Source: Fusibacter sp. JL216-2
GTDB taxonomy: Bacteria; Bacillota; Clostridia; Peptostreptococcales; Acidaminobacteraceae
DNA length: 64,000 bases
Direction: 5' to 3'
Assembly (NCBI RefSeq): GCF_050596425.1
Contig: NZ_CP192292.1
Span: forward strand, 1,287,987-1,351,986
Position 1 is the stretch's first letter. Each line of letters opens with the position of its first letter. Positions 11,341 to 44,228 of the stretch are shown here, piece by piece. The notes beneath the pieces are model-generated. The model saw only the letters and a program-made list of their open reading frames with translations. It ran no database searches and was not told the origin of the DNA. Position numbers and translations under genes: made by a program.

Positions 11341-11341
11341 T

Positions 11342-12173: not shown

Positions 12174-12230
12174 AGATTAAGTGACTTAGATTAAATTTTA
12201 TAAAGATAAAAAATTATGCGAGGTGTTAAG

Positions 12231-14273: not shown

Positions 14274-14277
14274 ATAT

Positions 14278-14318
14278 AAAGTGGCTCAGACCTATCGGTC
14301 TGAGCCACTTTTTTAAAG
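14278..14318. terminator. bidirectional intrinsic terminator between CoADR (+) and GNAT (-)
   Basis: GTGGCTCAGACC-TATC-GGTCTGAGCCAC flanked by A-run and T-run. Confidence 0.8.
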
Positions 14319-14326
14319 ACAAATAT

Positions 14327-14761
14327 CTATTTTTTAACCATAATGCACTCAGAATGTCCCGAGTCCTCATTGATTTGAGTGTCGATTATGTCAAAACCGC
14401 GCCTAATATAGAATTCAAGAGCCTGGGTGTTTTCCTTATAGACAGCCAGTGTCAAGTTTCCATAAGTCTGGTAGGCATACTCAAGGAGTTTTCTACCAGT
14501 GCCCTTGCCTTGATGAGAAACGGCAACGAAAAGGGCACCAATATAGGATTTATCCAGAATGCTGATAAAGCCCAAGAGTTCTCCATTCTCAGTGTACACA
14601 AATGTATCACTTTTGGGGATGTATACATCTCTTATGAGAGCATAGTTTTTCTGCCAGTAGGCTTTTGAAATAAAGGGGTGGCCCTTGATTGTGGATTCCA
14701 GCCACAAGTTCATGACCCGGTCAATTTCCTGTGGGTTAGTCTTTAACTTTCTGATCATCAT
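14327..14761 (-). CDS. GNAT family N-acetyltransferase
   Basis: HQGKGTGRKLLEYA CoA-binding motif. Confidence 0.75.
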   Translation of the reverse strand: MMIRKLKTNPQEIDRVMNLWLESTIKGHPFISKAYWQKNYALIRDVYIPKSDTFVYTENGELLGFISILDKSYIGALFVAVSHQGKGTGRKLLEYAYQTYGNLTLAVYKENTQALEFYIRRGFDIIDTQINEDSGHSECIMVKK

Positions 14762-15235
14762 AATACTCCTTGTTGATATAGATTCATTAACTGTCTAAAT
14801 TCACAATAAGATTAGATGGGCTTCTGTGCATAAGTACCTCGCTTTAATTTTAATAGCTCTAGACTAGCACAAGTTAGGTGGACTGACAACGCATGTTGGA
14901 ATAAAAATATGTTGGATCGTCTTGATTTTGCCAAACCTGCAAAGTGATTTAATATTAGTGAAGATAGCATATAAGAAATTATTAATGCAGACGATTATTT
15001 TCCCCAAAATTTCAATCTTTAGATTCACGAAATTTAATAGGACAATAGCGTATATTAGATTTTCTCTGTGTGTTAAAATGGTTTTAGTAAACAATGTGAC
15101 TTATTTTAATAATATATAGAAACCATTGTCCAGTAAAAAGATAAATAGGGATGTTATCACTCTACTTATTATAATCTGGTAAGATAAGCCACGGATACTA
15201 CAAAAACCTGAAATGCGTTAAAGGATATGATAGAT

Positions 15236-26885: not shown

Positions 26886-28049
26886 ATGATTGATATAACC
26901 GCTTTACTAAGTCAATCTGGGGTTGGTCAGGACTCAATTCGCTATGCGTCTGGCTGTAAAAAGGCCAAACATGGTGTGACCTCAACCAGGGGACCTGTGG
27001 TCGCGTGGAATATAACAAAGCGATGCAACTTTACTTGCAAGCACTGCTATTCAAGTGCCGATTTGAACCCAGGACAAGAAGAACTAGGGCTTGATGAAAT
27101 AAAATCCGCTATAGATCAAATGAAAGCTCTCAAGGTTCCTGTGATCCTTCTTTCTGGAGGGGAACCCATGATGCATGAGCATATTTTTGAAATCATTGAG
27201 TATATCAAAGCCTCTGGCATCCGGGTGAGTCTATCAACAAATGGGAGCCTGATAACGAGAGACACAGCTTTAAGACTGAAATCCTTGGGGGTATCCTACG
27301 TGGGAATCAGTCTAGATGGTATAGGAGAAATCAACGATAGATTTAGAGGGGTCAAGGGCGCCTTTGAAAAAGCAGTGCAAGGCATAAGAAATTGTAATGA
27401 AGCTGGCCAAAAAGTTGGCCTGCGCATGACTGTTCACAAGCATAATGTGTACCACGTGCCGAGCATTTTAAGCTTTATGGAAGAAGAGTCTGTCAAGCGT
27501 ATTTGCTTTTACCACTTGGTGCCGTCTGGAAGAGGGGTTGATATTCAAGATCAAATGATGTCCCCTGAAGAAGCCAGAAAATTTTTAGAGTCACTTATTG
27601 ACTATACGAATCAACAGGACATGGTGAATGATCCGAAAGAGATTTTAACGGTAACCAACCATGTGGATGGCCCTTATACTTACATACTTACAAAAGATAA
27701 AGATCCGGGCTTGGCTCAAAACGTGCTGGAAAAACTTAAAAACAACAAGGGGAATCGTTCGGGGGTTGCCATTATGAATATGGACTGGAGTGGCAATGTG
27801 TATCCGGATCAGTTTTCGAAGTTTATGCCCCTCGGCAGTGTTCGAGAAAAGTCCTTAGAGGAGATTTGGGTAAAAGGCACAGAGGCCTTGAATCAGCTCA
27901 GAAATAAAAATGATCACTTAAACGATCGGTGCAGAAACTGCAAATGGCTGGATATTTGCGGTGGAAACCTAAGGGCGCGTGCCTATATGACAACCGGTGA
28001 TTTATGGGGACATGACCCTGGATGCTACTTAAAGGATGATGAAATATGA
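26886..28049 (+). CDS. radical SAM/SPASM enzyme of alternative heme biosynthesis (AhbC/AhbD = NirJ1/NirJ2 type)
   Basis: CNFTCKHC radical-SAM cluster, C-terminal Cys-rich SPASM region (CRNCKWLDICGGNLRARA), adjacent to AhbA/B-like genes. Confidence 0.75.
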   Translation: MIDITALLSQSGVGQDSIRYASGCKKAKHGVTSTRGPVVAWNITKRCNFTCKHCYSSADLNPGQEELGLDEIKSAIDQMKALKVPVILLSGGEPMMHEHIFEIIEYIKASGIRVSLSTNGSLITRDTALRLKSLGVSYVGISLDGIGEINDRFRGVKGAFEKAVQGIRNCNEAGQKVGLRMTVHKHNVYHVPSILSFMEEESVKRICFYHLVPSGRGVDIQDQMMSPEEARKFLESLIDYTNQQDMVNDPKEILTVTNHVDGPYTYILTKDKDPGLAQNVLEKLKNNKGNRSGVAIMNMDWSGNVYPDQFSKFMPLGSVREKSLEEIWVKGTEALNQLRNKNDHLNDRCRNCKWLDICGGNLRARAYMTTGDLWGHDPGCYLKDDEI

Positions 28050-29059
28050 TACTTTCATGGAATACGACAAAAAGATGTAATCTGTACTGCAAACATTGTT
28101 ATAGGGAGTCAGATGAAAATCCAGCCCTTAATGAATTAACCACGGAGGAAGGCTACAAGCTCATTGATGAGATTGCCAGGACAAAGGCCTTTAAAATACT
28201 AATTCTTAGTGGGGGAGAACCTCTAATTCGTCCTGATATTGAAGACCTTGCCCGTCACGCTAGGACAAGGGGTCTTATACCCGTACTGGGTACAAACGGG
28301 ACATTGATTACAAAAGAAAGGGCCAAAACCTTAAAAGAAGCAGGGGTTGCTGCAGTGGGTATTAGCCTTGACTCTGTATGTCCTGAAAAGCACAATGATT
28401 TTCGTCAAACCCCGGAAGCCTTTGAAAAAGCGCTTGCTGGTATAAAAAATGCCCATGACGAAGGCATTCGTATACAGATCAACCCCACTATCACAAAGGA
28501 CAATGTGGATGAGATTGACAGCCTAATAGAAATGGCAGAAAAACTAAAGGCTGGGGCTCTCCATCCATTTTTCCTGGTTGAGGCGGGACGGGGCAAGTGC
28601 ATGACGGAAAATGCACTCTCTGATGAAGAATATTTTGAAGCCTTAAAGAAAATTATGACCCTGCAGGGGACCAGTCAAGTGGAACTCAAGCCCACATGCG
28701 CCCCACAGTTTATGAGTCTTGCAAAATCCATGGGGGTCAAAACAAGGTTTACCAGAGGTTGCTTGGCAGGGACGAGCTACTGCTGTATTTTGCCAAGTGG
28801 TCAAGTTCATGTTTGTCCATATCTTCCCATAGAAGCAGGCCATGTCCGCGACAAGGCTTTTGATGAAATTTGGTCTGAAAGTGAAGTCTTTATTAAATTA
28901 CGGGGGCAAGTGAATTATGAGGGCCTATGCGGAACATGTGAGGACCATAACATTTGTGGCGGCTGTAGGGCACGAGCCTACTACAAAACAGGTGACTTTA
29001 TGACAGCAGACCCTATGTCTGCCCACTGCTATAAAAGACAGGAGGGACTTGATGAATAA
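28046..29059 (+). CDS. radical SAM/SPASM enzyme of alternative heme biosynthesis (AhbD/AhbC = NirJ2/NirJ1 type)
   Basis: CNLYCKHC plus SPASM (CGTCEDHNICGGCRARA). Paralog of the upstream gene. Confidence 0.75.
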   Translation: MILSWNTTKRCNLYCKHCYRESDENPALNELTTEEGYKLIDEIARTKAFKILILSGGEPLIRPDIEDLARHARTRGLIPVLGTNGTLITKERAKTLKEAGVAAVGISLDSVCPEKHNDFRQTPEAFEKALAGIKNAHDEGIRIQINPTITKDNVDEIDSLIEMAEKLKAGALHPFFLVEAGRGKCMTENALSDEEYFEALKKIMTLQGTSQVELKPTCAPQFMSLAKSMGVKTRFTRGCLAGTSYCCILPSGQVHVCPYLPIEAGHVRDKAFDEIWSESEVFIKLRGQVNYEGLCGTCEDHNICGGCRARAYYKTGDFMTADPMSAHCYKRQEGLDE

Positions 29060-29498
29060 TAAGGAACGTGCTGTACTCAATGTTATTCAGGAGGGGATGC
29101 CCATTAGCAAAAGACCCTTTCAGGATATTGGAAGACAGATTGATATGTCTGAAAGCCAAGTGATTGAAGTCATTGAGTCTTTAAATGAAAAGGGATTGAT
29201 TCGGCGATTTGGTGGTATTGTTAACATTGCTGAGCTCGGTGTTGTCAGCACACTTGTCGGCCTTCGAGTCCAACCAGAAGACGTTGAAAAGGTTGCACTA
29301 GAAATAAACACCTTAACGGGTGTCACACATAATTATGAAAGAGATGATGCCTTTAATTTATGGTTCACCCTTATGGAGTCCAGTGATGAAAAACTACATG
29401 AGAGACTGGAGGCTGTTGAGGCAATGGAGGCTGTAGAGTGCCTCATTGACCTGAAGGCAAAGCAAAAATTTAAAACAAAAGTGGTCTTAGACTTGTAA
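29052..29498 (+). CDS. siroheme decarboxylase subunit, AhbA/AhbB (NirD/NirL/NirG/NirH, Lrp/AsnC-like) family
   Basis: HTH-like N-terminus (RAVLNVIQEGMPISKRPF) and heme-d1/Ahb family sequence. ATG behind GGAGGGA. Confidence 0.75.
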   Translation: MNNKERAVLNVIQEGMPISKRPFQDIGRQIDMSESQVIEVIESLNEKGLIRRFGGIVNIAELGVVSTLVGLRVQPEDVEKVALEINTLTGVTHNYERDDAFNLWFTLMESSDEKLHERLEAVEAMEAVECLIDLKAKQKFKTKVVLDL

Positions 29499-29503
29499 AG
29501 GCG

Positions 29504-29998
29504 GTGAAGCGTTTGGATAGCAAGGACTTAAAAATATTAAAGGCCCTTTCTGGAAATATTCCTATATCAGAACAGCCATTTTTAGAATTGGCTCGTGGGC
29601 TTGGTATGAGTGAGGATGAAGTGATACAGCGTATCAGGGTCCTTCAAGAAAGTGGCGCTTTAAAGCGGATTGCCCCCATTCTCTACCACCACAAAACCAG
29701 GTACAAGTTCAACGCCCTCACAATCTGGTCAGTTGACCCATCTAGGGTAGAGATTTTAGCAGACTGCCTAATGTCTTTTAAGCACGTGAGCCACGTGTAT
29801 GAAAGAACCACTTGCGAGGCTTGGCCTTATAACCTGTATGGAATGGCCCATGGGACAAGTGAAAAAGATATTGAAGATATTGTTGAGGACGTTATACATA
29901 GAGTAGGAGATATGCCCCACAAAGTCGTATACACCGTCAAGGAGTGGAAAAAGACAAGCCCTGATTTGAAGTATTTGCTTGCACAAAGACCAGTGTAG
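29504..29998 (+). CDS. siroheme decarboxylase subunit, AhbA/AhbB family (second paralog)
   Basis: Paralog of the previous gene (LKILKALSGNIPISEQPF). GTG start. Confidence 0.7.
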   Translation: MKRLDSKDLKILKALSGNIPISEQPFLELARGLGMSEDEVIQRIRVLQESGALKRIAPILYHHKTRYKFNALTIWSVDPSRVEILADCLMSFKHVSHVYERTTCEAWPYNLYGMAHGTSEKDIEDIVEDVIHRVGDMPHKVVYTVKEWKKTSPDLKYLLAQRPV

Positions 29999-30065
29999 AC
30001 ACTTGATAAGAAGAAGGGCTTAATTAAAAGAAAAACAAGGCTAGAGATAAACGAAATAAAAAAGG

Positions 30066-30106
30066 AAAGACCCAGTGACCGAAGTGAAGGGCTGGGTCTT
30101 TTTTTG
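30066..30106 (+). terminator. intrinsic terminator after the ahb cluster
   Basis: AGACCCAG...CTGGGTCT followed by TTTTTTT. Confidence 0.8.
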
Positions 30107-30377
30107 TGTCTGCCTTTAAAACGATTAAGATATGTCTGGGACATATTACAAAAATAATACAAAACGAATAATACATGGTTACAATTTTGCTAATATTATA
30201 CATTAGACACATCTAAGTTGCTATAATAGAAAATGTTGGAACTAGAAAATGTTGGTTGTATTAAAACTTATAAGGATTAAGAAGCAGATAATCCTTTATA
30301 AGTGTCTAGAAACCATATTTGCTCACTTATAGAGGGAGGGGAGTGTTACGGAACTCATACGATTTGCGTTTAGCGGT

Positions 30378-30989
30378 GTGAATGTCATACCGACTTTGTT
30401 GCTGCTTCTAATACAGTGCTACTGGATAGTGGTGACCCTGGGCTTTTTTGATTTAGAATTTATGGATATTGATGTTGATTTGGAGAGTGCAGAAGGCATA
30501 GGTTTTTTAAACTCGCTGGCACTATTCGTCAACTATGGGAACGTACCTTTTGGACTTGTTTTAAGCTTAATCATTTTAAACTTTTGGATACTCATGATGC
30601 TGACATATTATTTGCCAATACAAGCGGGAGGCATAATAAGCTTTATTTTGCTCTTTCCAGCATTTTTGGCCAGTCTTTACATCACAAAGTTTGAAGTTCA
30701 GCCCTTAAAGGCTCGTTATTTTGAGCAAAAGGAAAACAACGATATTGAACATAGGGTGCTGAATAAAAGATGCCAGCTTCTATGTTCTTTGGAATATGGG
30801 CGTCTTGGTCAAGCAGAAATTAACCAAGACGGTGTGTCCATTGTAATAAATGTTAAAAGTCATTTTGAGGGCATTTCTTTTGAAAAAGGAGAATATGCAC
30901 TTGTCCTAAAAAAAGATGACAAAGATATTTATTACATTGGAAAGTTATTGTTGGGAAATGATTTCTATAAGGAGATGGAGGAAGTTTAA
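30378..30989 (+). CDS. NfeD/YqiJ-like membrane protein (flotillin-associated)
   Basis: N-terminal TM helices plus a soluble C-terminal domain. Stop overlaps the flotillin start. GTG start. Confidence 0.5.
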   Translation: MNVIPTLLLLLIQCYWIVVTLGFFDLEFMDIDVDLESAEGIGFLNSLALFVNYGNVPFGLVLSLIILNFWILMMLTYYLPIQAGGIISFILLFPAFLASLYITKFEVQPLKARYFEQKENNDIEHRVLNKRCQLLCSLEYGRLGQAEINQDGVSIVINVKSHFEGISFEKGEYALVLKKDDKDIYYIGKLLLGNDFYKEMEEV

Positions 30990-33013
30990 TGGGTTTTTTA
31001 ACACAAGTCGGATTTGTATCAGTAGGCACAGGCATACTGGTCATCCTAGGACTGCTATTCTTATTTTCAAGATTCTACAAGAAGGTGGAGCAGTCCAAGG
31101 TTATTATTAGAAATGGTGTAGGCGGTCAAAATGTATGTTTTGGTGGTATATTTGTCGTTCCGATCATTCACCACTATGAAATTATGGACATAGCTGTTAA
31201 GCGTGTAGAAATTGCCAGGGAAGGTAAAGAAGGTCTAATTTGTAAAGACAACCTACGTGCCGATATTCGAGTGGCGTTCTTTGTGCGTGTTAACCAAACG
31301 AAGGAAGATGTCCTTAAAGTGGCACAATCATTAGGCTGTAGACAAGGTTCAGATCCAGATACCCTAACGGCATTTTTTGATGCGAAATTCTCTGAAGCCC
31401 TTAAAACAGTTGGTAAGAAATTCGACTTTGTAGAACTATACACAAACAGAGAAAAATTCAAAGATGAAATATTACAAATCATTGGCACAGACCTAAATGG
31501 TTATGTGCTTGATGACGCTGCAATAGATTTTCTGGAGCAAACGGATATTAAACTTCTAAATGCAGATAATATTCTTGATTCAGAAGGTATTAAAAAGATC
31601 ACAGAACTGACTGCCAAACAAAGAATTCTGTCAAATGAAATTGAAAGAGAAAGAGAAAAGACAATCAAACAGCAAGATGTTGCGGCTCAAGAGGCTATTT
31701 TCGAGCTTGACAAACAACGTGCTGAGGCAGAAGCCAAGCAAAAAAGAGAAATATCCATTATCAAGTCAAGGGAAGAAGCAGAAGCAGAAAAAGTTGCACA
31801 GGAAGAACGCTTCAAGTCAGAACTTGCTCGTGTTAAAACGGAAGAGGAAATTGGTGTTGCTGAAGAAAACAAGCTAAGACAGATTATTATTGCGGCAAAA
31901 TCAAAAGAAAGCACAGAAGTTGTTGAAACAGAACGTGTTGATAGAAAAAGGCTGCTTGAATTGACGGAAAAAGAAAAGCTTGTTGAACTTGCGACAATTG
32001 AGAAAGAAAAGCAAGTTGAAGTGGAAAGAAAGAACGTTCAGACTGTTATTCGCGAAAGAGTGGCTGTGGAAAAAGACACAGTTGTGGAAGAAGAAAAAAT
32101 CAAAGACACTCGTGTCCTTGCTGAGGCTGATCGTGTTAAAAATGTTGCTCTTAAAAAAGCAGAAGAAGATGCAGAAACACAACAAATCAGAGAAGTTAAA
32201 GCTGCTGAAGCGGCTAAGATGGCAGCAGAAAAACAAGCTGAAAAAGCTATTATTGATGCAGATGCCAAGCTGAAATCGTCACAAAAAGAAGCGGAGGCCA
32301 TTAAGGTCATTGCAGATGCAAAAGTTCTGGATAACTCAGTGGACGGTGTTGCTGAATCTAAGGTTATCGAAGCTAAAGCTATGGCAGAAGCCAAAGGCGA
32401 AGCGGCTAAGGTTGAGGTTAAAGAAAAAGAAGGTATTGTTATCGCTGAAAACCTTAAGAGAAAGTACCTTTCTGAAGCAGAAGGCATCAAGGAAAAAGCG
32501 TCCAGCATGAAACTTCTTGATGAAGTTGGCCGTGAGCACGAAGAGTTCAAACTTGAACTTGATAAAGAAAAAGAAGTTCAACTTGCAAGAATCAATATTC
32601 AAAAAGACATTGCAGACGCTCAAGCCGCAGTTATTCAAGAAGCGCTTAAGTCAGCGAAAATTGACATTGTTGGCGGTGAAACAATGTTCTTTGATAAGAT
32701 CATTGGCTCTATTTCACAAGGTAAGTCTATCGACCGTCTAGTGGACAATAGCGATGTTCTATCGGATATTAAAGAAACACTTGTGACTGGTGATCCTGAG
32801 TACTTCCAAAAGCAACTCAAGAGCACGATGGGACGTTTTAACCTATCCTCTCAAGACCTGATGAACTTAACGATTTCAGGGGCCATCGGCAAAATGATGA
32901 AATCAGCCAATACAGCAGACAAGACAATGCTTGGAAAACTGCTCGATACAGTTCAAAAAGCAGGTGTGGCTGAACTTCCGGCAAATATCGTGAACACGAC
33001 TCTTGGAGAGTAA
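30989..33013 (+). CDS. flotillin (SPFH/band-7 family, FloT/YqiK-like) with extended E/A/K-rich coiled coil
   Basis: N-terminal TM, SPFH domain (KVIIRNGVGGQNVCFGGIFVVPIIHHYEIMD), long EA-repeat coiled coil. Confidence 0.85.
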   Translation: MGFLTQVGFVSVGTGILVILGLLFLFSRFYKKVEQSKVIIRNGVGGQNVCFGGIFVVPIIHHYEIMDIAVKRVEIAREGKEGLICKDNLRADIRVAFFVRVNQTKEDVLKVAQSLGCRQGSDPDTLTAFFDAKFSEALKTVGKKFDFVELYTNREKFKDEILQIIGTDLNGYVLDDAAIDFLEQTDIKLLNADNILDSEGIKKITELTAKQRILSNEIEREREKTIKQQDVAAQEAIFELDKQRAEAEAKQKREISIIKSREEAEAEKVAQEERFKSELARVKTEEEIGVAEENKLRQIIIAAKSKESTEVVETERVDRKRLLELTEKEKLVELATIEKEKQVEVERKNVQTVIRERVAVEKDTVVEEEKIKDTRVLAEADRVKNVALKKAEEDAETQQIREVKAAEAAKMAAEKQAEKAIIDADAKLKSSQKEAEAIKVIADAKVLDNSVDGVAESKVIEAKAMAEAKGEAAKVEVKEKEGIVIAENLKRKYLSEAEGIKEKASSMKLLDEVGREHEEFKLELDKEKEVQLARINIQKDIADAQAAVIQEALKSAKIDIVGGETMFFDKIIGSISQGKSIDRLVDNSDVLSDIKETLVTGDPEYFQKQLKSTMGRFNLSSQDLMNLTISGAIGKMMKSANTADKTMLGKLLDTVQKAGVAELPANIVNTTLGE

Positions 33014-34427
33014 TATGGATAACGGTACTTATGAAGTTATAAAAAGCCGTCTGACCAAGCAAGGGGACGACTTATTAGGGAAAGCAGAAAAATTAAATGC
33101 TGTTAGAAAGGATGTCTTTGGTTCTATTGAATCAAAGCTCCTTTCCAGCGAGAGAATTTTAACAGACAACAACTGTATTCCAAGGGATATGGCGCCTGTG
33201 GATGACTGTTTTCTCTTTGGATACAATGTTCATATTGGTCTGAAGCAAAAGGTAGAACTGGCAGATGTGTTTTCCATTTATAGATATGATCAAGAGGGAT
33301 TCACAGCGCAGTCGCTTGAAATGATCAATGACGACCAGTTCAAAAAGGATTTCGATGATCTTTACAAGTACTACAAGAACACATCTTTTGCAAAGTTCAC
33401 CATTATGCAGCCGTATTTTTATATGGTTTTTCAGGTGGGAACCAGCGCAACAGATATAAAAGCCTTCAAATGGCAGGTTGATGGCAAAAAAATGACCTAT
33501 GTGGATTCCAGAAGTGAGCATGAGGTCAAGTTTCATCTTGGAAACGAACTCAATTTCATTAAGGCAAGCAGGGAACACCAAAGAAATGGTATGCACCCCC
33601 ATGTGTCTATTCTTGACAAAGTCTTTGTGGAGACCATTGGCGGAGACTTGACCATAAAGGTTGAAGACAATACCGATGTGGGCAAGGGCATATACTCTGA
33701 GGATGTTGAGGATAAAGACCAAACCCTTGATGATGCGGAAATATATTATGCAGACCTTGACCAGCTCATTATCCTTAAAATTTTGCCTTATCAGGAAAAG
33801 GACTACAGGTATTTTGTTTTTAACAACAAGCTAAAAAGCGTTCAACGCATTGACTCCATAGAGCACACATGCAAGCTTCTTCCAGGAGGGCATGGTCTTA
33901 TATTCCCACAAGGCTACTATTTGCAAAATGGAGAGTTTAAACTGTTCGATGTGCCTGTCGAAAACCCTGTATTCGATGAACTGATCACATCTCCAAATGG
34001 AGAAGATTTTCAGTACATTTTCTACAATATGGACAGTGGCACATATCTCATTTACAACTACAATATTATTGAGCAGACCATAGATACGCCCATTGTATGC
34101 AGTGGTTACTCTCATTTCTGTAATGGGGAAATGCTGGTGTTCAGACATGAAAAGGATCCGAGAAAAAATCATGCTGTCCAGATATGGCAGACCCCTTATG
34201 TGGGCAAGGACTTTGAACTGGCTGGCAACCATGACTCCGAGCTCTATAAAATAGGCAATAAAGATGTTGTAAATTGTATAGCAGCTTGTCGGGGCATTGG
34301 AAAACTCATCAAAAAGGCGAGAGCTACCAAAGTGTCTACCTTGATATTGTTAAAGAAGCTCAGACGACTCTGGACCTTTATTTTTGGCTTGACAAGGAAG
34401 ATGCCTTTCATCTGGCTGATGACCTGA
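33003..34427 (+). CDS. N-terminal segment (to about nt 34316) of a roughly 1670-aa AAA+ protein; the tail of this ORF beyond 34316 is out-of-frame read-through
   Basis: Protein-like sequence up to ...NCIAACRGIGKLIKK; after that the frame reads nonsense, while the -1 frame continues as real protein. Confidence 0.55.
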   Translation: MESNMDNGTYEVIKSRLTKQGDDLLGKAEKLNAVRKDVFGSIESKLLSSERILTDNNCIPRDMAPVDDCFLFGYNVHIGLKQKVELADVFSIYRYDQEGFTAQSLEMINDDQFKKDFDDLYKYYKNTSFAKFTIMQPYFYMVFQVGTSATDIKAFKWQVDGKKMTYVDSRSEHEVKFHLGNELNFIKASREHQRNGMHPHVSILDKVFVETIGGDLTIKVEDNTDVGKGIYSEDVEDKDQTLDDAEIYYADLDQLIILKILPYQEKDYRYFVFNNKLKSVQRIDSIEHTCKLLPGGHGLIFPQGYYLQNGEFKLFDVPVENPVFDELITSPNGEDFQYIFYNMDSGTYLIYNYNIIEQTIDTPIVCSGYSHFCNGEMLVFRHEKDPRKNHAVQIWQTPYVGKDFELAGNHDSELYKIGNKDVVNCIAACRGIGKLIKKARATKVSTLILLKKLRRLWTFIFGLTRKMPFIWLMT

Positions 34428-37400
34428 AGAAGATAAAAGAGACAGCCACCTTTGCCATAGGCGAGTTTGAAAAAGTCATTCGAATGAAAAAATCCACTGA
34501 AAAACAAGTGGATCAAGTGACTGAGCAAACAGAAGAACTCTTGAAGAATCTTGAGTACGGCACCTTTGAAAGTGTTGACGAGTACGTCAATGTTTTGGGC
34601 CAAATACGAAATCTACGAGGGAAGATTGTCTCCCTTCGTGATTTAATGTATACGGACCTTGAGCATGTGGATAAACTCGATAAAAGCGTCAAAGAAAAAA
34701 ACGATGCATTTTCTGAGCAGTGTGTACACTTCCTGATTAGTCCAGATGGTCTACTGCCTTATGAAAGTGCCATTGAAGACTTGAAAAACGGCATTGAAGA
34801 GGTGACAAAGTCTCAAGAAGGACAAGAGCTTGCTGAAAAAATGGACAAGACATCAGAAGACTTGGAGCTTCTCATGGATATTGTCAGCAATTTTAAGATC
34901 GAGGATCCAACGGTTTCCACAGAGATCATTGAGAAAATTTCATCCCTCTTTTCTAAAATAAACAACGCCAAAGCCCAACTAAAAACAAAAATTGACGCTT
35001 TTTCAAAGAGTGAAATGACCATTCAGTTCAACGCTCAGATGAAATTATTGGGCCAGGCTGTGGCCAATTATTTGGAAGTGTCAGATACAGAAGAAAAGTG
35101 TGACAATGCTCTCAATAAGGTCATGGTTCAGCTTCAAGAACTTGAAGGAAAGTTTGCAGAGTTCGATGAGTACGTCATAAAACTTGATGAAAAGCGTGAA
35201 GAAATTTACAGTGCATTTGAGTCAAAAAAACAGGCCATTTTAGACAAACTCAACAAAAGACTTGTTGCCCTATCGGACTCTTCCGAAAGAATTATCAATG
35301 GCATTGAAAACAGAATAAAAGCTTTGGAGTCTGTGGAAAAAATCAATGGTTACCTGGCCACAGATATAATGGCTGAAAAAGTTCGGGATATTATCTCAGA
35401 GCTCCGAGAACTCGGAGACAGCGTTCGAGCAGATGAAATCAGTTCCAAGCTCAAGTCCCTTAAAGAGAACACCATCAGACAGCTCAAAGACAGGCAGGAT
35501 TTATATCTAAATGGAGAAGATGTCATAAAGCTTGGAGAGCATCACTTCTCGGTCAACCGTAAAAACATTGATCTGTCTATAGTTCAAAAAGATGGTCGTC
35601 TCTTCTACCACATCACAGGGACAGACTACTGGGATGAAGTCACCCATGAAGAGGTTTACAAGTACAAACATGTCTTTGAACAGAGTATGATCTCTGAGAA
35701 CATTGATGTCTATAGAGGGGAATATCTGGCATACATAATGTTTAGAAATGCCAGTGACCAGACCTATAAAAGTTTGGATGAACTTTATAACATGTCTTTA
35801 CCCCAGCTGACAGAAGCGGTAAGGACCTTCATGGAGAAAAGATACCAGGAAGGCTATACCAAGGGCGTTCACGATGAAGATGGTGCTAAAATACTCCACG
35901 GTCTTCTGGAACTCTATCATAATGTAGACCTGCTGATTTACCCTCATGATATTCGGTCGGCGGCTCGTCTGTATTGGAATAGCATGCTTGAGCCTTCAGA
36001 TAAGAAGATTATGAGAGAGCGACTTGGTCATCTTTCAAAAATAGCATCGTTCTTTGATTCAGAACCTAAACCGGATGACTATCTGCCTTTTGTCATTGAT
36101 AGACTTAAATCAGCCCAGTCTAATTTTTCTTTATTTAAGTCGACAGATGTTCATGAAATGGCCAGCTATCTATGTAAGGAACTTCTCAGTGGGTCTAACT
36201 TTGTTATTAGTCAAGATGCCAAACGTGTTTATGATGGCTTCGTATCATATCTAAGAGACAAAAAAGCCCTAGACACATTCACTCAGTCTCTTCAAAATTG
36301 TTCTGAAGACTTAGAAGGCCAATACTACTTGACCAAAGAATGGGTCAGTGCCTACTGGAAAGAACAAGAACAGGCTTCTGAAAAACATATAGAAGTTGAT
36401 CCAGAAGACTTAAGCGGTGTCCTTGGGGAAACTGTGGTTCTGCTCCTTGAAGATGAAGTCAATATGGATAGTGTTGTTCAGTCCTCTACAAAAGCGACCA
36501 TCGAGGGGCTGGTTGGAACCCACAATATACTAGAGAATGGGGGCTATAGCCTCCACTATACGGACTTCATGGACAAAATGAAGGACTTCAGTGAAAGGGT
36601 TGTTGTGGACTATATAAGGTATCAGGATATTAAAAAGACCTTGATTAAAACCTTTAAGGCTCAGCTTCGTCTGGATGACTTTAAGCCAAATGTTCTTACG
36701 TCTTTCGTGCGCAATAAGCTCATAGACGATGTTTATCTACCTCTTATAGGGGATAACCTCGCCAAACAAATTGGTGTTGTGGGTGACAATAAGCGAACAG
36801 ACTTAATGGGTCTTCTGCTCCTTGTATCTCCACCGGGCTATGGTAAAACAACCCTCATGGAGTACATTGCCAATCGACTCGGCCTTATTATGGTTAAGGT
36901 CAATGGACCTTCCCTGGGCAATGAAGTGACCTCGCTTGATCCTTCAAAAGCAAGTCATTCCAGCGCTAAGGAAGAACTAAGAAAACTTAATCTTGCCCTG
37001 AAAATGGGCAACAATATCATGCTCTATGTGGATGACATCCAGCACTGTAACCCAGAGTTCTTGCAAAAGTTCATCTCTTTATGTGATGGACAGCGTAAGA
37101 TTGAAGGGGTCCACAATGGTGTTGGTCAAACCTTTGACCTGCGTGGCAAGAAAATTGCAGTGGTTATGGCAGGCAATCCATATACAGAAAGTGGAGAGAA
37201 ATTTAAAATACCAGACATGTTGGCCAATCGTGCCGATGTTTATAACCTAGGGGACATGCTTCGTGAAAATGAAGAGGCCTTTAAACTCAGCTATATAGAA
37301 AACAGCCTGACATCCAACCCTGTCTTGTCCAAACTGACCAATAGAAATCAATCTGACTTATATGGTCTTATTGAGATGGCGGGTGGGGCAGATCGAGAAA

Positions 37401-38011
37401 GTGTGACCCTAGAAGGCAACTACACAGCTGATGAACTAAGTGAGTATGTGCAGGTGCTGGAAAAGCTAAATGTGGTTCGTGATATCGTTCTAAAGGTGAA
37501 TATGGAGTATATTTATTCTGCGGCCCAGGCTGACGAATACCGAAATGAACCAGCCTTTAAACTGCAAGGGTCCTACCGTAATATGAACAAGATTGCTGAG
37601 CGCGTGGTCTCTGTAATGAATGACGATGAGCTTTTTGCACAGATTGTTGGTAGTTATGAGAACGATTGTCAGACCCTGACGTCCGGTGCGGAGTCAAACA
37701 TGCTTAAATGGAAGGAAATCAATAATTGTCTCACTGATGAAGAAGGTATGCGATATGATCAAATCAAGCAGGTCTTCAATAAGAACAAACTTGTCAAAGG
37801 TGATGACAAAATGGGACAAGCCGTGGTTGTACTCAGCGACCTGACAGATGAAATCGCCTCCATAAAAGAAATGTTTAAAAACAAGCCAGCATCAGATGGA
37901 CAGCCATCAGGTGAGTACGTTAATGTTCTGAAAGATTTGACAGAGAACATACGGAGAATTAAAGAGGTTTATGAAAGGCTAGACCAAGACAAGGTCAAAG
38001 ATAAAAAATAG
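34274..38011 (+). CDS. C-terminal 1230-aa segment of the same giant protein: long coiled-coil region plus AAA+ (AAA_5/MoxR-like) ATPase module
   Basis: Walker A LLVSPPGYGKTT, Walker B IMLYVDDIQ, sensor-1 VVMAGNP, MoxR-like NPYTESGEKFKIPDMLANRADVY. Confidence 0.7.
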   Translation: MYSSLSGHWKTHQKGESYQSVYLDIVKEAQTTLDLYFWLDKEDAFHLADDLKKIKETATFAIGEFEKVIRMKKSTEKQVDQVTEQTEELLKNLEYGTFESVDEYVNVLGQIRNLRGKIVSLRDLMYTDLEHVDKLDKSVKEKNDAFSEQCVHFLISPDGLLPYESAIEDLKNGIEEVTKSQEGQELAEKMDKTSEDLELLMDIVSNFKIEDPTVSTEIIEKISSLFSKINNAKAQLKTKIDAFSKSEMTIQFNAQMKLLGQAVANYLEVSDTEEKCDNALNKVMVQLQELEGKFAEFDEYVIKLDEKREEIYSAFESKKQAILDKLNKRLVALSDSSERIINGIENRIKALESVEKINGYLATDIMAEKVRDIISELRELGDSVRADEISSKLKSLKENTIRQLKDRQDLYLNGEDVIKLGEHHFSVNRKNIDLSIVQKDGRLFYHITGTDYWDEVTHEEVYKYKHVFEQSMISENIDVYRGEYLAYIMFRNASDQTYKSLDELYNMSLPQLTEAVRTFMEKRYQEGYTKGVHDEDGAKILHGLLELYHNVDLLIYPHDIRSAARLYWNSMLEPSDKKIMRERLGHLSKIASFFDSEPKPDDYLPFVIDRLKSAQSNFSLFKSTDVHEMASYLCKELLSGSNFVISQDAKRVYDGFVSYLRDKKALDTFTQSLQNCSEDLEGQYYLTKEWVSAYWKEQEQASEKHIEVDPEDLSGVLGETVVLLLEDEVNMDSVVQSSTKATIEGLVGTHNILENGGYSLHYTDFMDKMKDFSERVVVDYIRYQDIKKTLIKTFKAQLRLDDFKPNVLTSFVRNKLIDDVYLPLIGDNLAKQIGVVGDNKRTDLMGLLLLVSPPGYGKTTLMEYIANRLGLIMVKVNGPSLGNEVTSLDPSKASHSSAKEELRKLNLALKMGNNIMLYVDDIQHCNPEFLQKFISLCDGQRKIEGVHNGVGQTFDLRGKKIAVVMAGNPYTESGEKFKIPDMLANRADVYNLGDMLRENEEAFKLSYIENSLTSNPVLSKLTNRNQSDLYGLIEMAGGADRESVTLEGNYTADELSEYVQVLEKLNVVRDIVLKVNMEYIYSAAQADEYRNEPAFKLQGSYRNMNKIAERVVSVMNDDELFAQIVGSYENDCQTLTSGAESNMLKWKEINNCLTDEEGMRYDQIKQVFNKNKLVKGDDKMGQAVVVLSDLTDEIASIKEMFKNKPASDGQPSGEYVNVLKDLTENIRRIKEVYERLDQDKVKDKK
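34310..34316 (+). other. C-AAA-AAG heptamer at the exact point where the giant ORF shifts to the -1 frame (candidate programmed -1 frameshift site or homopolymer indel)
   Basis: Upstream frame reads atc-aaa-aag (I-K-K); the -1 frame continues aaa-ggc-gag (K-G-E...) with protein-like sequence. Confidence 0.5.
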
Positions 38012-38052
38012 ACATTCTTGCATCCATTTAATGAATAAAGATATCAAAACAG

Positions 38053-38096
38053 AAAGTCTGCTTACCCTTAGCATGGGCAAGCAGACTTTTATTTTT
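38053..38096. terminator. bidirectional terminator after the giant AAA+ gene (+) and the AraC gene (-)
   Basis: AGTCTGCTTACCC...GGGCAAGCAGACT followed by TTTATTTTTT. Confidence 0.8.
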
Positions 38097-38116
38097 TGAA
38101 AGTTTTATGACAAATT

Positions 38117-39133
38117 TCATTCTTGTCTGGACCTGAACTTCCTATATTGTAGGGGCGTTCGCTTGTATTTTGCCTTAAAGGCCTTCCCAAAATTAGAAGG
38201 GTGGCTGTAACCAACACGCGAGGCGATAGCTTCTATGCTTAAATCTGTGGTTGACAGTAAATTCGCGGCGTGAGATAAGCGCATGTCCTTGATATAACTG
38301 CCAATGGTCATCTTGAACATTTGGCGAAAGCCCGAGGTCAGTTTTTGCTCATTCATGTAAAGCATCTTGCTGAGCTGGTTGATCGTGGGCGGGGTTTGCA
38401 AATTGTCATTGATAATGGACTTGGCCCTTTGAATGCCCTGAATGTCTTCTGATGTAAGCCCTGTTGCGTGTAGGCTGGTGATATCTAAGGCTGCTATTCT
38501 ATCTGGGTCATAAAAGGCTGTGGTTTCTGAGTTTTCGAGTTCAGAACTGATCAAAGCGAGACACTCAAAAACCTTTGCGTGAAGCGTCAGGGGGGTGAGA
38601 GTCTCATTTTTAATGGCATTATCAAGGGCGTGGAGGACGTCAATAACCCCAAGGGGCAAGTATAAGATGGCGTGGTTCACACTTAACTTTAGGATATGTT
38701 TTAGGTCAGGAAAGTCAGTCGTTAAGCTGGCCAGATGATCCATGTTCACAAAAATTTCAATCCCCTTATAGTGTTGACCTTTTTTCCAGTTTTGTAGGCC
38801 ACAGACATGGTCTTCGATGGCTAAGAAGGGGGCTGGCAAAAAGTTTGTGATGGGTCTATTATCCATTTGAAATTCTGAGACCCCGTCTAGTACGAGGCCA
38901 AAGCGAAGCTGTCTATCATTGGTGTGAAAGTTCAAACTGAAAGACTCTGGAATTTTATAGTCTGCTGAAATGAGGTCATAAGATCCTTCTTTGCTAAAAA
39001 AGGCAATATGTCCTGTCTCAAGCCCTTTGGCATCTTTATAAACAAGACCAAAATCCCTGCGCCTGCTAAAGGGGGTTGACTTGTAATCTATGTGGTTGAG
39101 GAATTTTTTCTGGAAGTCAGTAAGGGTTCCCAT
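38117..39133 (-). CDS. AraC-family transcriptional regulator
   Basis: C-terminal AraC double HTH (LSIEAIASRVGYSHPSNFGKAFKAKYKRTP). Divergent from the Fe-siderophore ABC operon. Confidence 0.85.
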   Translation of the reverse strand: MGTLTDFQKKFLNHIDYKSTPFSRRRDFGLVYKDAKGLETGHIAFFSKEGSYDLISADYKIPESFSLNFHTNDRQLRFGLVLDGVSEFQMDNRPITNFLPAPFLAIEDHVCGLQNWKKGQHYKGIEIFVNMDHLASLTTDFPDLKHILKLSVNHAILYLPLGVIDVLHALDNAIKNETLTPLTLHAKVFECLALISSELENSETTAFYDPDRIAALDITSLHATGLTSEDIQGIQRAKSIINDNLQTPPTINQLSKMLYMNEQKLTSGFRQMFKMTIGSYIKDMRLSHAANLLSTTDLSIEAIASRVGYSHPSNFGKAFKAKYKRTPLQYRKFRSRQE

Positions 39134-39349
39134 GAGCGTGGCACCTTTCTAAAATAGTGCAAAACATAAAAAAAATAGTGATTTGTTCGAAACGCTTGTA
39201 TTGATAATGAATATCAATTATAATCCTTTTGCAAGTGCGTTTGATAATCATTTGCAATAAGCGTGTAAGTCATTATATCCTATTTGTCTACTTTTGATAA
39301 GGTCATGGACAAACTTAGGAAAGGGACAGTATTTTAAATTGGGGTTAAT

Positions 39350-40129
39350 ATGAATGAAGTAAAAGCAGTAAAACTTAGTGTAGGCTATGGCGGGGCTGAT
39401 ATTGTGAAAGCCGTTGGCATCAATATACCTGTGAATCAAACCACAGCTATAATCGGACCGAATGGGTGTGGCAAGTCGACCCTATTAAAGGCCATATCCA
39501 ACATTATTCCCTATACAGGGGATGTGATTGTTGGTGGCAAGAATATTGAGACTTATTCACGAAAACGCCTTGCAAAGATTTTAGCCATGTTGCCACAAAA
39601 GCCTGAAGCGACAAATGGTCTGACTGTGGAAGAACTGGTTGCCTATGGGCGTCACCCATATGTATCAGGAATAGGGAACCTTCGTAAAGAAGATTATGAC
39701 ATGATCCAGTGGGCCTTGAAGGTGACGGGGGTTCTCGATTTTAGAAAGAAGAAAATTGAAACGCTATCTGGCGGTCAAAAACAACGTGTGTGGATTGCCC
39801 TTTGTCTGGCACAGGACACAGAAATCATATTTTTAGACGAGCCAACGACTTATTTGGATATATCACATCAGTTAGAAATACTGGAGATCCTGAACGACTT
39901 AAAAGAAAATCATGAGAAGACCATTGTAATGGTCCTGCATGATTTAAATCAAGCCTCTAAATATGCTGACTATTTGATTGCATTAAAGGATGGACAGATT
40001 GTGAAAGAAGGCTCAAGTCAGGAGGTTATCACCAAAGGTGTGCTTAAAGAACTTTTCAATATCAAGGCAGACATTGCCCCTGATAAGGAGACAGGCAAAC
40101 CTCTGTGTTTGTCATTCAATTTACTATAA
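39350..40129 (+). CDS. ferric-siderophore ABC transporter ATP-binding protein (FecE/FepC-like)
   Basis: Walker A GPNGCGKST, signature LSGGQKQRVWIA, Walker B IFLDEPT. Confidence 0.85.
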   Translation: MNEVKAVKLSVGYGGADIVKAVGINIPVNQTTAIIGPNGCGKSTLLKAISNIIPYTGDVIVGGKNIETYSRKRLAKILAMLPQKPEATNGLTVEELVAYGRHPYVSGIGNLRKEDYDMIQWALKVTGVLDFRKKKIETLSGGQKQRVWIALCLAQDTEIIFLDEPTTYLDISHQLEILEILNDLKENHEKTIVMVLHDLNQASKYADYLIALKDGQIVKEGSSQEVITKGVLKELFNIKADIAPDKETGKPLCLSFNLL

Positions 40130-40204
40130 TTTTAGGCATAAGCTGTTTTTATAAAGCTTGATATCAGTAATGCTGATACAAGGCTTTTAAACTGAGGAGG
40201 AATC

Positions 40205-41182
40205 ATGAAAAAGTATTTAGCAATTTTATTAGCAATGTTTATGTTAGCGGGCTGTGCCCAGGCACCGATCACAGACACGACGGAAATTAACTCACAAGAC
40301 AGTGAGAAAACGCAATCCAATCAGGGGCAAAATGAAGACCAAATACAAAATGAGGATCAAACACAAAGTGAAACATTCACATATCAGTCTGAACATGGTG
40401 ACATTGAACTACCAACTGACCCTGAGCGTATAGTGGTTCTTGACGCATCGGCGGCTGGCGCGGTCCTTCTCTTTGATGGCAGTGTTGTAGGGCATGAACA
40501 GTGGACGGGACATAACGCGTTATTTCAAGACCGTCTAAAGAATTCAACTGAGGTTGCTACTGACAATCTTGAGCAGATTCTTGCCCTCAATCCAGATCTT
40601 ATTGTCACTTCACCTTCTAATGAGAACTTTGAAGAGTTGTCACAAATTGCCCCGACTGTTTCTTTTACATACGGAAGATTGAACTACCTTGATACCATTA
40701 TCGAGTATGGCAAAATGCTCAACAAAGAAGAGAAAGCCAAACAGTGGGTCGAGCGCTATCAAGCTAAGGCAAAAATAGCAGGGGAAGCCATTAAATCAAA
40801 GTACGGCGAGGATGTTTCCATTTCAGTTATTGAAGCCTATGGAGATGAAATGTACCTTTATGGTGACAACTGGGGTCGTGGCACCCAAGTTGTGTATCAG
40901 GAAATGGGCTTAAGAATGACTGATCCTGTAAAAAAAGTGGCCCTAACAGATGGCTACTACAGTATTTCGGCAGAAGTGGTTCAAGACTATCAGGCAGACC
41001 TAATGATACTATCACAATTTGAAGGGTCAAATACAGCATTTATGGAAACAGAAACGTGGAATAACATTAAGGCTGTTAAAAATAATCAGGTGCTTATGGT
41101 GGAAGGGGAGTCGTTTTATATGACGGGCCCCATCACCCTAGAGTATCAGCTGGAAACCATAGAAAGCTTTTTTACCAAGTAA
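40205..41182 (+). CDS. iron-siderophore ABC transporter substrate-binding lipoprotein (class III SBP)
   Basis: Lipobox MLAGCAQ and FecB/FhuD-like sequence. Confidence 0.8.
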   Translation: MKKYLAILLAMFMLAGCAQAPITDTTEINSQDSEKTQSNQGQNEDQIQNEDQTQSETFTYQSEHGDIELPTDPERIVVLDASAAGAVLLFDGSVVGHEQWTGHNALFQDRLKNSTEVATDNLEQILALNPDLIVTSPSNENFEELSQIAPTVSFTYGRLNYLDTIIEYGKMLNKEEKAKQWVERYQAKAKIAGEAIKSKYGEDVSISVIEAYGDEMYLYGDNWGRGTQVVYQEMGLRMTDPVKKVALTDGYYSISAEVVQDYQADLMILSQFEGSNTAFMETETWNNIKAVKNNQVLMVEGESFYMTGPITLEYQLETIESFFTK

Positions 41183-42178
41183 ATGAATAAGAGAAAAACG
41201 GTAGGGTTGGTGCTAATGCTGTGTTTTGTGTTGGCATCAGCTTTTCTTGTGGCTTTGGCTTTCGGAGCTGCTGACATACCCTTTCAGGACGTGAAAGCAT
41301 TTATATTTAGCAGGTACCAAAACGAAAACACATTAATTCTTAAAGAACTGAGATTGCCTAGAGTACTGGCTTCAGCCCTTGCAGGTATGGCCCTTGCTGT
41401 TTCGGGTGCCTATATGCAGGGCATGACTCGGAACGCCCTTGCCAGCCCAAGTTTATTTGGTATCACAGCAGGGGCAAGTGCTGTTTTAGCGCTCTCATTA
41501 GCACTTTTTCAAGGGATGGATCAATATGGTGTTTTACTGGCTTGTCTGACTGGGAGCACAGCATCAGGGCTTCTTGTTTTCTTTATAAGTTTACGGGGCA
41601 GACATAGCTTAAGCAACAATAAAACTGTCCTTGCCGGTGCGGCGGTATCAACACTTCTTTATGCAGTGGCAGATGCCATATCTTTGAGGTTTACAAGCTC
41701 TAAACAAATGGCTATGTGGGCAAGCAGTGGTCTTATCGGGGTCACGATGGAAGAAATATTCATTGTTCTTCCCATTATAATCATTGGATCATTTACGGCT
41801 CTCGTCTACTCAAAGAAATTGACCCTTGTCAGCCTAGATGAGGAACTGGCTGTTTCTCTTGGCGAAAATGTAAAACAACTGCGAATTATATTTTTCTTCA
41901 TGGTCACATGTCTAACTGGGGCGGCAATAGCTCTTTCAGGCAGCCTGGTCTTTATTGGTCTGGTCATACCGCATTTTGTAAGACGGCTTGTTGGTGGTGA
42001 CTATAGAAACATTGTGCCGTTTTCCATGTTCACAGGGGCTGTTTTTATGATTCTAGCCGACCTCCTGTCAAGAACTATAAACGCACCTTATGAAACCCCA
42101 GTGACGGCAATAATGGCTGTTGCAAGTTATCCAATATTTTTATATGTTGTGCGAAATGGAGGGATAGCAAGTGATTAA
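41183..42178 (+). CDS. FecCD-family iron-siderophore ABC permease
   Basis: FecCD permease fold with multiple TM helices. Confidence 0.85.
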   Translation: MNKRKTVGLVLMLCFVLASAFLVALAFGAADIPFQDVKAFIFSRYQNENTLILKELRLPRVLASALAGMALAVSGAYMQGMTRNALASPSLFGITAGASAVLALSLALFQGMDQYGVLLACLTGSTASGLLVFFISLRGRHSLSNNKTVLAGAAVSTLLYAVADAISLRFTSSKQMAMWASSGLIGVTMEEIFIVLPIIIIGSFTALVYSKKLTLVSLDEELAVSLGENVKQLRIIFFFMVTCLTGAAIALSGSLVFIGLVIPHFVRRLVGGDYRNIVPFSMFTGAVFMILADLLSRTINAPYETPVTAIMAVASYPIFLYVVRNGGIASD

Positions 42179-43178
42179 AAACCGTCGTGCAAGATATATA
42201 AGCTATGTTCTTTTATCTTTGGCAGTGGGGATTGTATTTCTTTATGGCCTAGCTCATGGATTCATAAAAATGGACATGGTGGATGTCCTTAAAACACTTG
42301 TGGGAAAGGGCACCAAGGCATCAACGTTTACAATATGGACTCTAAGAATGCCGAGGCTTATAATCACTCTAATTATGGGAATGGCCCTGGCTTTAAGTGG
42401 CAGTGTCCTTCAAACGCTGACACGGAATGACTTGGCAGATCCGGGTATACTGGGTATTAATGCTGGTGCTGGCCTTGGTGTAACTGTGGCTTATTTAAGT
42501 CTAGATTTTTCTGGTGCGAGTATTGTCTACACCTTGCCTATTATAGGCTTTGTGGGAGCTATGGGCACTTTCCTTATAACCCTTATGGTGGCCAGAGAAA
42601 AAGGTGGTCAACTCAATGTGGACAAATTGGTTCTAACCGGTATTGGCAGTGCTATAGCCATATCCGGCATGATGATCTTATTTATTTCATCAGCAGAACG
42701 TGAAGATGTCCAGTTTATCTATAAATGGTTAAGTGGCAACATATGGGGAGACAAATGGGCATTTGTCCATGTAAGCCTAGTGGTCGTGCTTCTTTTAATG
42801 TTTTTAGTTTTCGCAAAGGCACGCACCATGAATATATTGGGCCTTGATAACATATCAGCCCAGAGTCTGGGGGTTGATCTAAAGCGGGAAAGACACGCCC
42901 TTATCCTATATGCTGTGGCCCTTGCTGCAGTGGTTGTATCGGTTGCTGGGTCTATTTCCTTTGTCGGGTTGATTGTGCCCCATATTGCAAAAAAAATATA
43001 TGGTCCCAAGCACCAGTATTTTTTAGTAGGGAGTGTCTTGTTAGGAGGGCTCTTTTTAATGGGGGCTGACTTGATTGGACGGAATATATTTCCACCTCAA
43101 GGGCTATTGCCAGGGATTGTCGTGGCTATAATTGGAGCACCTTACTTTTTATATTTGGTTGTGAAGAGCAACCATTGA
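42171..43178 (+). CDS. FecCD-family iron-siderophore ABC permease (second subunit)
   Basis: Paralog of the previous gene; overlaps it by 8 nt. Confidence 0.85.
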   Translation: MIKNRRARYISYVLLSLAVGIVFLYGLAHGFIKMDMVDVLKTLVGKGTKASTFTIWTLRMPRLIITLIMGMALALSGSVLQTLTRNDLADPGILGINAGAGLGVTVAYLSLDFSGASIVYTLPIIGFVGAMGTFLITLMVAREKGGQLNVDKLVLTGIGSAIAISGMMILFISSAEREDVQFIYKWLSGNIWGDKWAFVHVSLVVVLLLMFLVFAKARTMNILGLDNISAQSLGVDLKRERHALILYAVALAAVVVSVAGSISFVGLIVPHIAKKIYGPKHQYFLVGSVLLGGLFLMGADLIGRNIFPPQGLLPGIVVAIIGAPYFLYLVVKSNH

Positions 43179-43427
43179 TGAGGGGCTAAATTCTATGAAA
43201 ACGAGTAAACTGATGCAGATATACGCCAGGTCTAATTTAATCCTAGATAGTATTTACGAGCTGGCGATCACGCCTGGATCAAAAGTGGATGGGGCAAGAA
43301 CTGTAGAGGGGGTATGCGGCTTTCCAAAAAAGTCATTTAAGAAAGAAGACCCTTAAAAATTTCCGCGCAAGACGTGCCTGTGCTTTCTCTACATGTTAAA
43401 ATGAGGAGTAGAAGCTCAAAATAATGA

Positions 43428-44228
43428 GTGAAAGCTCAAAACGAGGGATGGAACTTCAAAAATGAAAATAGGCCCTTAAAGTCAGGCATTGAAACTTTAA
43501 TTGAAACTTTAATTGAAACTTTAATTGAAACTTTAAATGAGGCCAAAAAGGAGAAACCAGTGAAAGTCAAAGCCAAGATATCCATTAAACAAGTTTCCAT
43601 GAAACAGCTCATGAAATGCCACGATCTAGAAACCGTGTCAGGCTATTGTCAAAGCTGTAGTAATTTTGGAAAAAATCATTCTTGTCCTGAGTTCAAGTTC
43701 TCCATAGATGACTACTTAAACCAATACAATTACGCCACGGTGATTATGACCCATATTAATACGGATATAATAAAAAAAGAGAGTGAAAGGCTTAAAGAAA
43801 AGACCTTTACATCAAGGGTCTTTAGCAATTACACAAAAAACAATCCAAACGTTCAAACAGACTGGAAGTCCCAGTTATCCATGTACGTTTTCAATCTTGT
43901 AAAGGATCATATGGCTCAGGAACTGCTTGAACTGGAAAAAGGTCATGAAAGTGTGGTGGGGCTTCCACCAGGATCATGCACATCTTGCCAAGTTTGCACC
44001 AAAACAAAGGGGCAGGCCTGTGTTCACAAAGATAAATTGCGTTACTCTCTTGAAGCCCTGGGTTTCTTAGTTTCAGATATCTATGAACGGTTTTTTGATA
44101 TGCAACTGGGCTGGACAGAAAATGAACTGCCGGAGTCTTTTAACACGTGTAGCGCCATTTTGTCTGGTGAGCAAATAGACATCCAAACCATAGAAAATGC
44201 CCTAGGCCCTATCGAGGTGGAACTATAG
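43428..44228 (+). CDS. hypothetical Cys-rich (putative Fe-S/metal-binding) protein; N-terminus contains (ETLI)x4 encoded by a 12-bp tandem repeat; true start uncertain
   Basis: CQSCSNFGKNHSCP and CTSCQVCTKTKGQAC motifs. GTG start; an alternative ATG lies near 43596. Confidence 0.45.
   Translation: MKAQNEGWNFKNENRPLKSGIETLIETLIETLIETLNEAKKEKPVKVKAKISIKQVSMKQLMKCHDLETVSGYCQSCSNFGKNHSCPEFKFSIDDYLNQYNYATVIMTHINTDIIKKESERLKEKTFTSRVFSNYTKNNPNVQTDWKSQLSMYVFNLVKDHMAQELLELEKGHESVVGLPPGSCTSCQVCTKTKGQACVHKDKLRYSLEALGFLVSDIYERFFDMQLGWTENELPESFNTCSAILSGEQIDIQTIENALGPIEVEL
43488..43535 (+). repeat. perfect 12-bp tandem repeat (ATTGAAACTTTA)x4
   Basis: Read directly from the sequence; encodes (ETLI)x4 in the frame of the 43428 ORF. 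Confidence 0.95.

Follow-up and report, generated by a model that had tools for sequence, protein, structure and literature searches.

A -1 frameshift on adjacent lysine codons is known from E. coli dnaX, where it occurs on A AAA AAG, between an upstream Shine-Dalgarno (SD)-like element and a downstream stem-loop, and leads to a short product. The smallest -1 shift motif of E. coli and Bacillus is the tetramer A_AAG, and incidental or compensatory -1 shifting on such sites has been described, for example on A_CGA_AAG of Bacillus subtilis cdd, as has "corrective" frameshifting of indels (PMC5009743). For Thermus it has been argued that a tRNA-Lys with a CUU anticodon makes slippage on AAG poor (PMC5009743). 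In the contingency loci of Haemophilus, Neisseria and Campylobacter, the length of a mononucleotide run decides whether the frame is on or off. These loci possess a long hypermutable tract, usually of 8 nt or more, that selection keeps in strains and relatives alike. Apparent pseudogenes are also created by homopolymer errors of long reads and by slipped-strand indels; in these, a run is changed by one unit in a single record, and restoring the base gives a full-length conserved ORF in a gene that is otherwise undamaged. We compared these systems with a frame break in a giant ATPase gene of Fusibacter sp. JL216-2, located in a stretch of 64,000 nucleotides (the window).

Two overlapping ORFs on the plus strand, 33003-34427 (frame 0) and 34274-38011 (-1 frame), have 154 nt in common, a little more than the 150 nt reported initially. 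Positions 34308-34319 read atc aaa aag gcg and include a run of five A (A5; 34311-34315). Frame 0 encodes ...GIGKLIKK up to this point and then enters a tail of 36 codons (ARATKVSTL...IWLMT) plus a stop at 34317-34427, for which no homology was found, and the -1 frame entered at 34316 continues as GESYQSVYLDIVKEAQ.... The tail is -1-frame coding DNA misread in frame 0; in its proper frame it specifies a conserved GESYQSVYLDIVKE motif. The original prediction that the frame changes by -1 right at the A-run is confirmed by this sequence. Insertion of one A produces a 4998-nt ORF whose sole stop is terminal. The probable start is the ATG at 33015, which has GGAGAG 7 nt upstream and is also the start of the conspecific protein P0001; in sequence, too, the frame-0 part before the break is identical to the N-terminus of P0001. 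From this ATG the repaired product is 1665 aa long, in good agreement with the anticipated AAA+ protein of about 1670 aa. The 5' part of the gene thus begins at the ATG and ends with AAG, the second of the two final Lys codons of ...KLIKK (33015-34316, plus strand), and the 3' part, in the -1 frame of the same strand (34316-38011, stop at 38009-38011), encodes the end of DUF3686, DUF7902, a coiled-coil region and the AAA domain.

In the fused product, PF12458 (DUF3686; E = 3.5e-173) is matched at residues 23-461 by profile positions 1-448 of 448, and the match therefore runs across the junction at residue 438. The two ORFs are thus a single gene carrying a -1 break, as had been proposed. Farther along the fused product are matches to PF25472 (DUF7902; residues 583-664, E = 1.3e-24) and to PF00004 (P-loop AAA; residues 1272-1353, E = 7.6e-07), and the sequence contains a Walker A motif, GPPGYGKTT. 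This layout of N-terminal PF12458, central PF25472 and C-terminal P-loop AAA in about 1620-1690 aa is that of the DUF3686-AAA "DNA repair ATPase" family, to which the gene belongs as judged from its domain matches. The family is widespread and, its label notwithstanding, functionally uncharacterised; literature searches on DUF3686 and on strain JL216-2 found no papers, and PADLOC gave no match to the ATPase or to its two upstream neighbours. Translated in frame 0 from ATG 33015, the gene as recorded gives a 470-aa product that is identical to WP_430885591.1 / XUJ21335.1 ("DNA repair ATPase", Fusibacter sp. JL216-2). This product has one exact match in the protein collection, where it clusters with the 1665-aa representative P0001. 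The collection contains no independent assembly of strain JL216-2, the 470-aa product being found in NCBI only, and an exact search for the downstream product starting at ATG 34484 gave no match.

The ATPase gene closes a compact cassette of three genes (30432-38011 of the window; 3418-10998 and 7418-14998 in the conspecific assemblies L001 and L002, respectively). It is preceded by genes for a 185-aa protein with no family match and for a 674-aa protein with an N-terminal SPFH/Band_7 domain (30989-33013, plus strand). The stop of the first gene overlaps the start of the second by 1 nt, and the ATPase start comes 1 nt after the SPFH stop. Band_7 was matched (E = 2e-8) only in a scan restricted to the first 378 aa, and a scan of the whole protein gave no match even at E <= 1. 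Upstream of the cassette, positions 26886-29998 carry two radical-SAM/SPASM genes followed by two genes for NirD/L-like AsnC-type HTH proteins. From these identities, which are precomputed Pfam labels on conspecific contigs, the region appears to resemble an alternative haem or sirohaem-decarboxylase (ahb/nir-like) cluster. Neither the Rfam scan nor the tRNA scan matched anything in the window.

Next, we examined the site in six independent conspecific sequences that are 98.8-99.3% identical to the window at the nucleotide level. Three are Logan assemblies from different runs (L001, SRR28093312; L002, SRR15988961; L003, SRR3166490), and three are WGS contigs (LQAI01001714, LQAJ01000005 and LQAG01000006) recovered from metagenome contigs with a search pattern neutral to the allele. 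All six read ATC AAA AAA GGC (A6) in frame, and A5 is confined to the window (1/7). The conspecific proteins P0001, P0125 and P0127 are 1665 aa each and contain ...GIGKLIKKGESYQSVYLDIVKEAQ...; the junction peptide of the intact conspecific protein, ...GIGKLIKKGESYQ..., is exactly what a -1 shift would give. P0001 aligns with the fused query over 100% of its length and is reported as 100% identical, a rounded figure that includes 8 amino acid differences. Between L001, the contig that carries P0001, and window positions 27015-43517 the identity is 99.34%, with 107 mismatches and two gaps. The first gap is the break site itself (A6 versus A5 in the window), and the second, at 40146, is T4 versus T5 in an intergenic spacer. 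An exact-pattern scan of the genome contig collection for either allele returned no match, so that the species with this sequence is absent from that collection.

The break is a non-programmed single-base homopolymer contraction, private to the window's record, and the gene is intact elsewhere. The native state of the species is an uninterrupted ORF of 1665 codons reading ATC AAA AAA GGC at the site. In the window's record one A is missing (A6 to A5), which sends frame-0 reading into the 36-codon nonsense tail and puts the other 1231 codons into the -1 frame. What looks like a slippery heptamer is the appearance of an A6 run followed by G after one A has gone. The locus shares with the homopolymer-indel cases both the one-unit run change private to one record and the return of a full-length conserved ORF, in a gene otherwise undamaged, once the base is restored: ATC-AAAAA-GGC in the window stands against ATC-AAAAAA-GGC in L001-L006, and the repaired ORF is colinear with P0001. 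We found no feature that distinguishes it from such cases.

Several of the conspecific records contain breaks of their own. The three LQA* assemblies, and the SPFH gene adjacent to the ATPase in L003, are noisy and broken at other homopolymers, but never at the A-run site. In L003 (5824-7849) the SPFH gene is in pieces of 378, 249 and 50 aa, and in P0123, P0126 and P0128, from the LQAJ and LQAG contigs, the ATPase and SPFH genes are full of homopolymer frameshifts. The ATPase in these noisy public assemblies is cut at sites other than the A-run and shows compensating double shifts. Fragment proteins from the L003, LQAJ and LQAG records should not be taken for natural variants. L003 also has a patch of 20 substitutions within about 110 nt of the AAA-domain region (11744-11852; gene nt 3894-4002, window about 36907-37015), of which 19 are synonymous and 1 is nonsynonymous. 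The patch resembles a short segment acquired by recombination from a more distant relative.

The orthologues were then compared at both protein and DNA levels. Among the best 120 protein homologues (56-100% identity, 1571-1691 aa), nearly all possess the same three Pfam domains, and the junction is gap-free and in frame in every one. At the position of the first Lys, 76 of the 120 carry Gln and only 6 carry Lys, and the K-G-E-S-Y-x-S-x-Y-x-D that follows this position is nearly invariant. A DNA scan with a 201-codon query, using one genome per species, yielded 80 loci from Clostridia, Planctomycetota, Bacteroidota and others; in 80/80 the whole query lies in a single 603-nt frame with zero stops. 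The commonest codons at the site are ATT CAA AAA GGT (Gln-Lys-Gly at CAA AAA GGT). The A6 run of the Fusibacter species exists because Lys (AAA) stands where most homologues have Gln (CAA). Neither the A-run nor the slippery heptamer nor the two-frame layout is conserved in orthologues. Uninterrupted orthologues with A6 at this position had been named in the original prediction, alongside heterogeneity of the reads, as an outcome that would speak against recoding; the 80 loci and the 120 homologues are uninterrupted here, and the six conspecifics are in frame with A6.

In contrast to dnaX, whose site it resembles in the AAA-AAG Lys codon pair and in the -1 direction, the Fusibacter site has C in first position, and neither of the two dnaX stimulators was found there. 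Positions 34310-34316 read C AAA AAG. Re-pairing from AAG to AAA in the A site would be perfect, and re-pairing from AAA to CAA in the P site would be mismatched at codon position 1. The site therefore falls short of the full X XXY YYZ heptamer that had been claimed for it: position 1 is C where A would be expected, which leaves just the minimal A_AAG tetramer. The hairpin that the original prediction proposed to look for 5-9 nt downstream was not detected by pseudoknot-free folding: the minimum free energies of 44 nt (-6 kcal/mol, z = -0.35) and 84 nt (-14 kcal/mol, z = +0.60) were no better than those of dinucleotide shuffles. In the search at positions -22 to -4 for an SD-like stimulator, which in dnaX-type sites lies about 10 nt upstream, the best anti-SD duplex was GGGG, 15 nt away, at -5.0 kcal/mol, and a duplex of -5.0 kcal/mol or better occurs at 24% of random window positions. 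The hexamer AAAAAG is present in 140 copies in the window, compared with 109 +/- 10 in dinucleotide-preserving shuffles (0/100 shuffles reach 140), and two more in-frame AAA-AAG pairs lie within the ATPase gene itself, at 33342 and 36632. As the hexamer is so common, the motif alone carries no weight. The organism does not treat AAA-AAG as hazardous, over-representation being the opposite of the avoidance expected if the pair were strongly shift-prone.

These data bear on the possibility that dnaX-like or IS-like programmed -1 frameshifting at C AAA AAG delivers 470-aa and 1665-aa products in a set ratio. The exact coincidence of the frame change with A_AAG is in line with such a mechanism. 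Several observations oppose it: 1) the two-frame layout is seen in one of the seven conspecific sequences and in 0/80 orthologue loci; 2) the Lys-Lys pair is not conserved, Gln-Lys being the usual pair (76/120 homologues); 3) the heptamer lacks its first A, so that in the P site the tRNA on AAA would need to pair with CAA; and 4) the break falls within the conserved DUF3686 domain rather than at a domain boundary. In dnaX, moreover, the shift gives rise to a short product, whereas the Fusibacter ATPase would need a shift to be made at full length, and both site and layout are missing from conspecifics and orthologues. Four of five dnaX-type features (heptamer, 5' stimulator, 3' stimulator and conservation) are lacking. 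Dnax-like programmed frameshifting, the central claim of the original prediction, is not supported: conspecifics carry A6, orthologues are in frame and no stimulator was detected. We regard a programmed event here as exceedingly unlikely. Transcriptional slippage requires A/T runs much longer than 5-6 nt and was set aside for a run of only this length.

If A5 is real, A_AAG sits exactly where a -1 slip restores the frame, as in compensatory shifting. A Lys-tRNA slipping by -1 on A_AAG could then supply a low level of full-length ATPase, making the allele a leaky hypomorph, although we consider this improbable. Such shifting would be of the non-programmed "compensatory" kind, with a product equal in sequence to the wild type (...KK-GESYQ...). 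Unlike described A_AAG cases, the site has no stimulator, and any slippage would represent leakiness of a mutant allele rather than an evolved mechanism. The peptide LIKKGESYQSVYLDIVK would be the mark of a full-length product from a real A5 allele.

The two long ORFs might also represent a functional split, with one polypeptide for the DUF3686 part and another for the AAA part. Such a split would remove the last ~23 DUF3686 profile positions, including an invariant Y-x3-Y-x-D motif. None of the in-frame ATG, GTG or TTG codons between 34274 and 34781 has a Shine-Dalgarno sequence, and none of the 120 best homologues is split at the site. Because the break removes the conserved end of DUF3686 and is not inter-domain, a functional split is unlikely, to the point that we assign it a negligible probability.

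A one-unit difference in a mononucleotide run between close strains is also what would be seen at a phase-variable contingency locus, where the A-run would frequently turn the ATPase on or off among the cells of a population. As in the loci of Haemophilus, Neisseria and Campylobacter, the frame here depends on run length. However, a run of six is short by the standards of contingency loci, six of the seven sequences are "on", most orthologues have no equivalent in-frame run (CAA AAA GG), and a second in-frame run is not evident. The A6/A5 tract thus differs from contingency loci in both length and conservation, and it is not known to vary within a population. Phase variation is accordingly judged very unlikely.

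With conspecifics at A6 and orthologues uninterrupted, the evidence favours the alternative raised from the start, that A5 should be A6, through either sequencing error or pseudogenisation. The assembly is a single contig of 4,910,366 bp. Contigs of this kind usually come from long reads, and the errors that typically persist in long-read assemblies are one-base deletions in homopolymers. We infer a sequencing cause at about even confidence, an error in consensus or basecalling being slightly more probable as the source than an event in the cell.

Homopolymer runs are also mutational hot spots, and a genuine, very recent slipped-strand mutation from A6 to A5, in JL216-2 or in its laboratory lineage, is a plausible explanation to which we give somewhat less than an even chance. 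The ATPase gene would then be a fresh pseudogene or null allele giving a 470-aa truncated product. Consistent with such a mutation, NCBI lists the 470-aa WP_430885591.1 as an ordinary protein, no other gene in the window is broken (none of about 60 is split), and the other indels look filtered by selection, being intergenic or a multiple of three relative to conspecifics (12 nt at 43488-43499). This clean remainder of the window suggests a low indel error rate and hence leaves room for a real mutation. By contrast, 6/6 conspecifics are intact, the gene is strongly conserved across Clostridia and Planctomycetota, and downstream of the break there is neither a second lesion nor a nonsynonymous excess. 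The evidence against a recent mutation is still compatible with a very young one.

The substitution counts were obtained as nonsynonymous to synonymous (N:S) changes on the window branch, and gave 7:8 downstream of the break versus 24:38 in a control made up of eleven flanking genes and the ATPase part upstream of the break (p = 0.57). A first count, from a four-way comparison of the ATPase gene downstream of the break, had given 6 N : 3 S versus 4 N : 40 S on other branches, as though the gene were an old pseudogene under relaxed selection. This reading was rejected, as the excess vanished with the flanking-gene control and the 4:40 ratio is dominated by the synonymous patch of L003. No second lesion was found in the repaired ATPase gene. 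With neither relaxed selection nor a second lesion, the break is extremely recent or was not in the cell at all.

Other length differences and overlaps in the window were inspected as well. A T5 run at 40142-40146 is private to the window, compared with T4 in L001 and L002, and is a second one-base homopolymer difference; it sits between an ABC ATPase gene (ending at 40129) and a gene for a substrate-binding protein (starting at 40205). Positions 43488-43499 are a 12-nt in-frame tandem duplication, ATTGAAACTTTA, in ORF 43428-44228, present in the window and absent from L002, and a 3-nt indel relative to conspecifics at 26616 is intergenic. Further frameshifts were considered at the overlapping pairs 3360/4096, 7093/7610, 53629/54041 and 44775/45811 and dismissed, each ORF having its own complete or near-complete Pfam domain. 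The pair 49439/49845 was likewise rejected as a split gene; its first ORF is a complete DHFR and its second has no Pfam match.

The event at the Fusibacter site is of an already known kind, an ordinary homopolymer indel, and the main use of the finding is annotation correction. Any A-run followed by G mimics the dnaX heptamer once it has lost one base, so that a slippery-looking motif at a frame break is no evidence for a programmed shift unless the break is conserved. WP_430885591.1 consists of the front of a 1665-aa protein plus 36 out-of-frame residues. It calls for annotation as a frameshifted gene or assembly error, and should be regarded neither as a candidate for recoding nor as a short paralogue.
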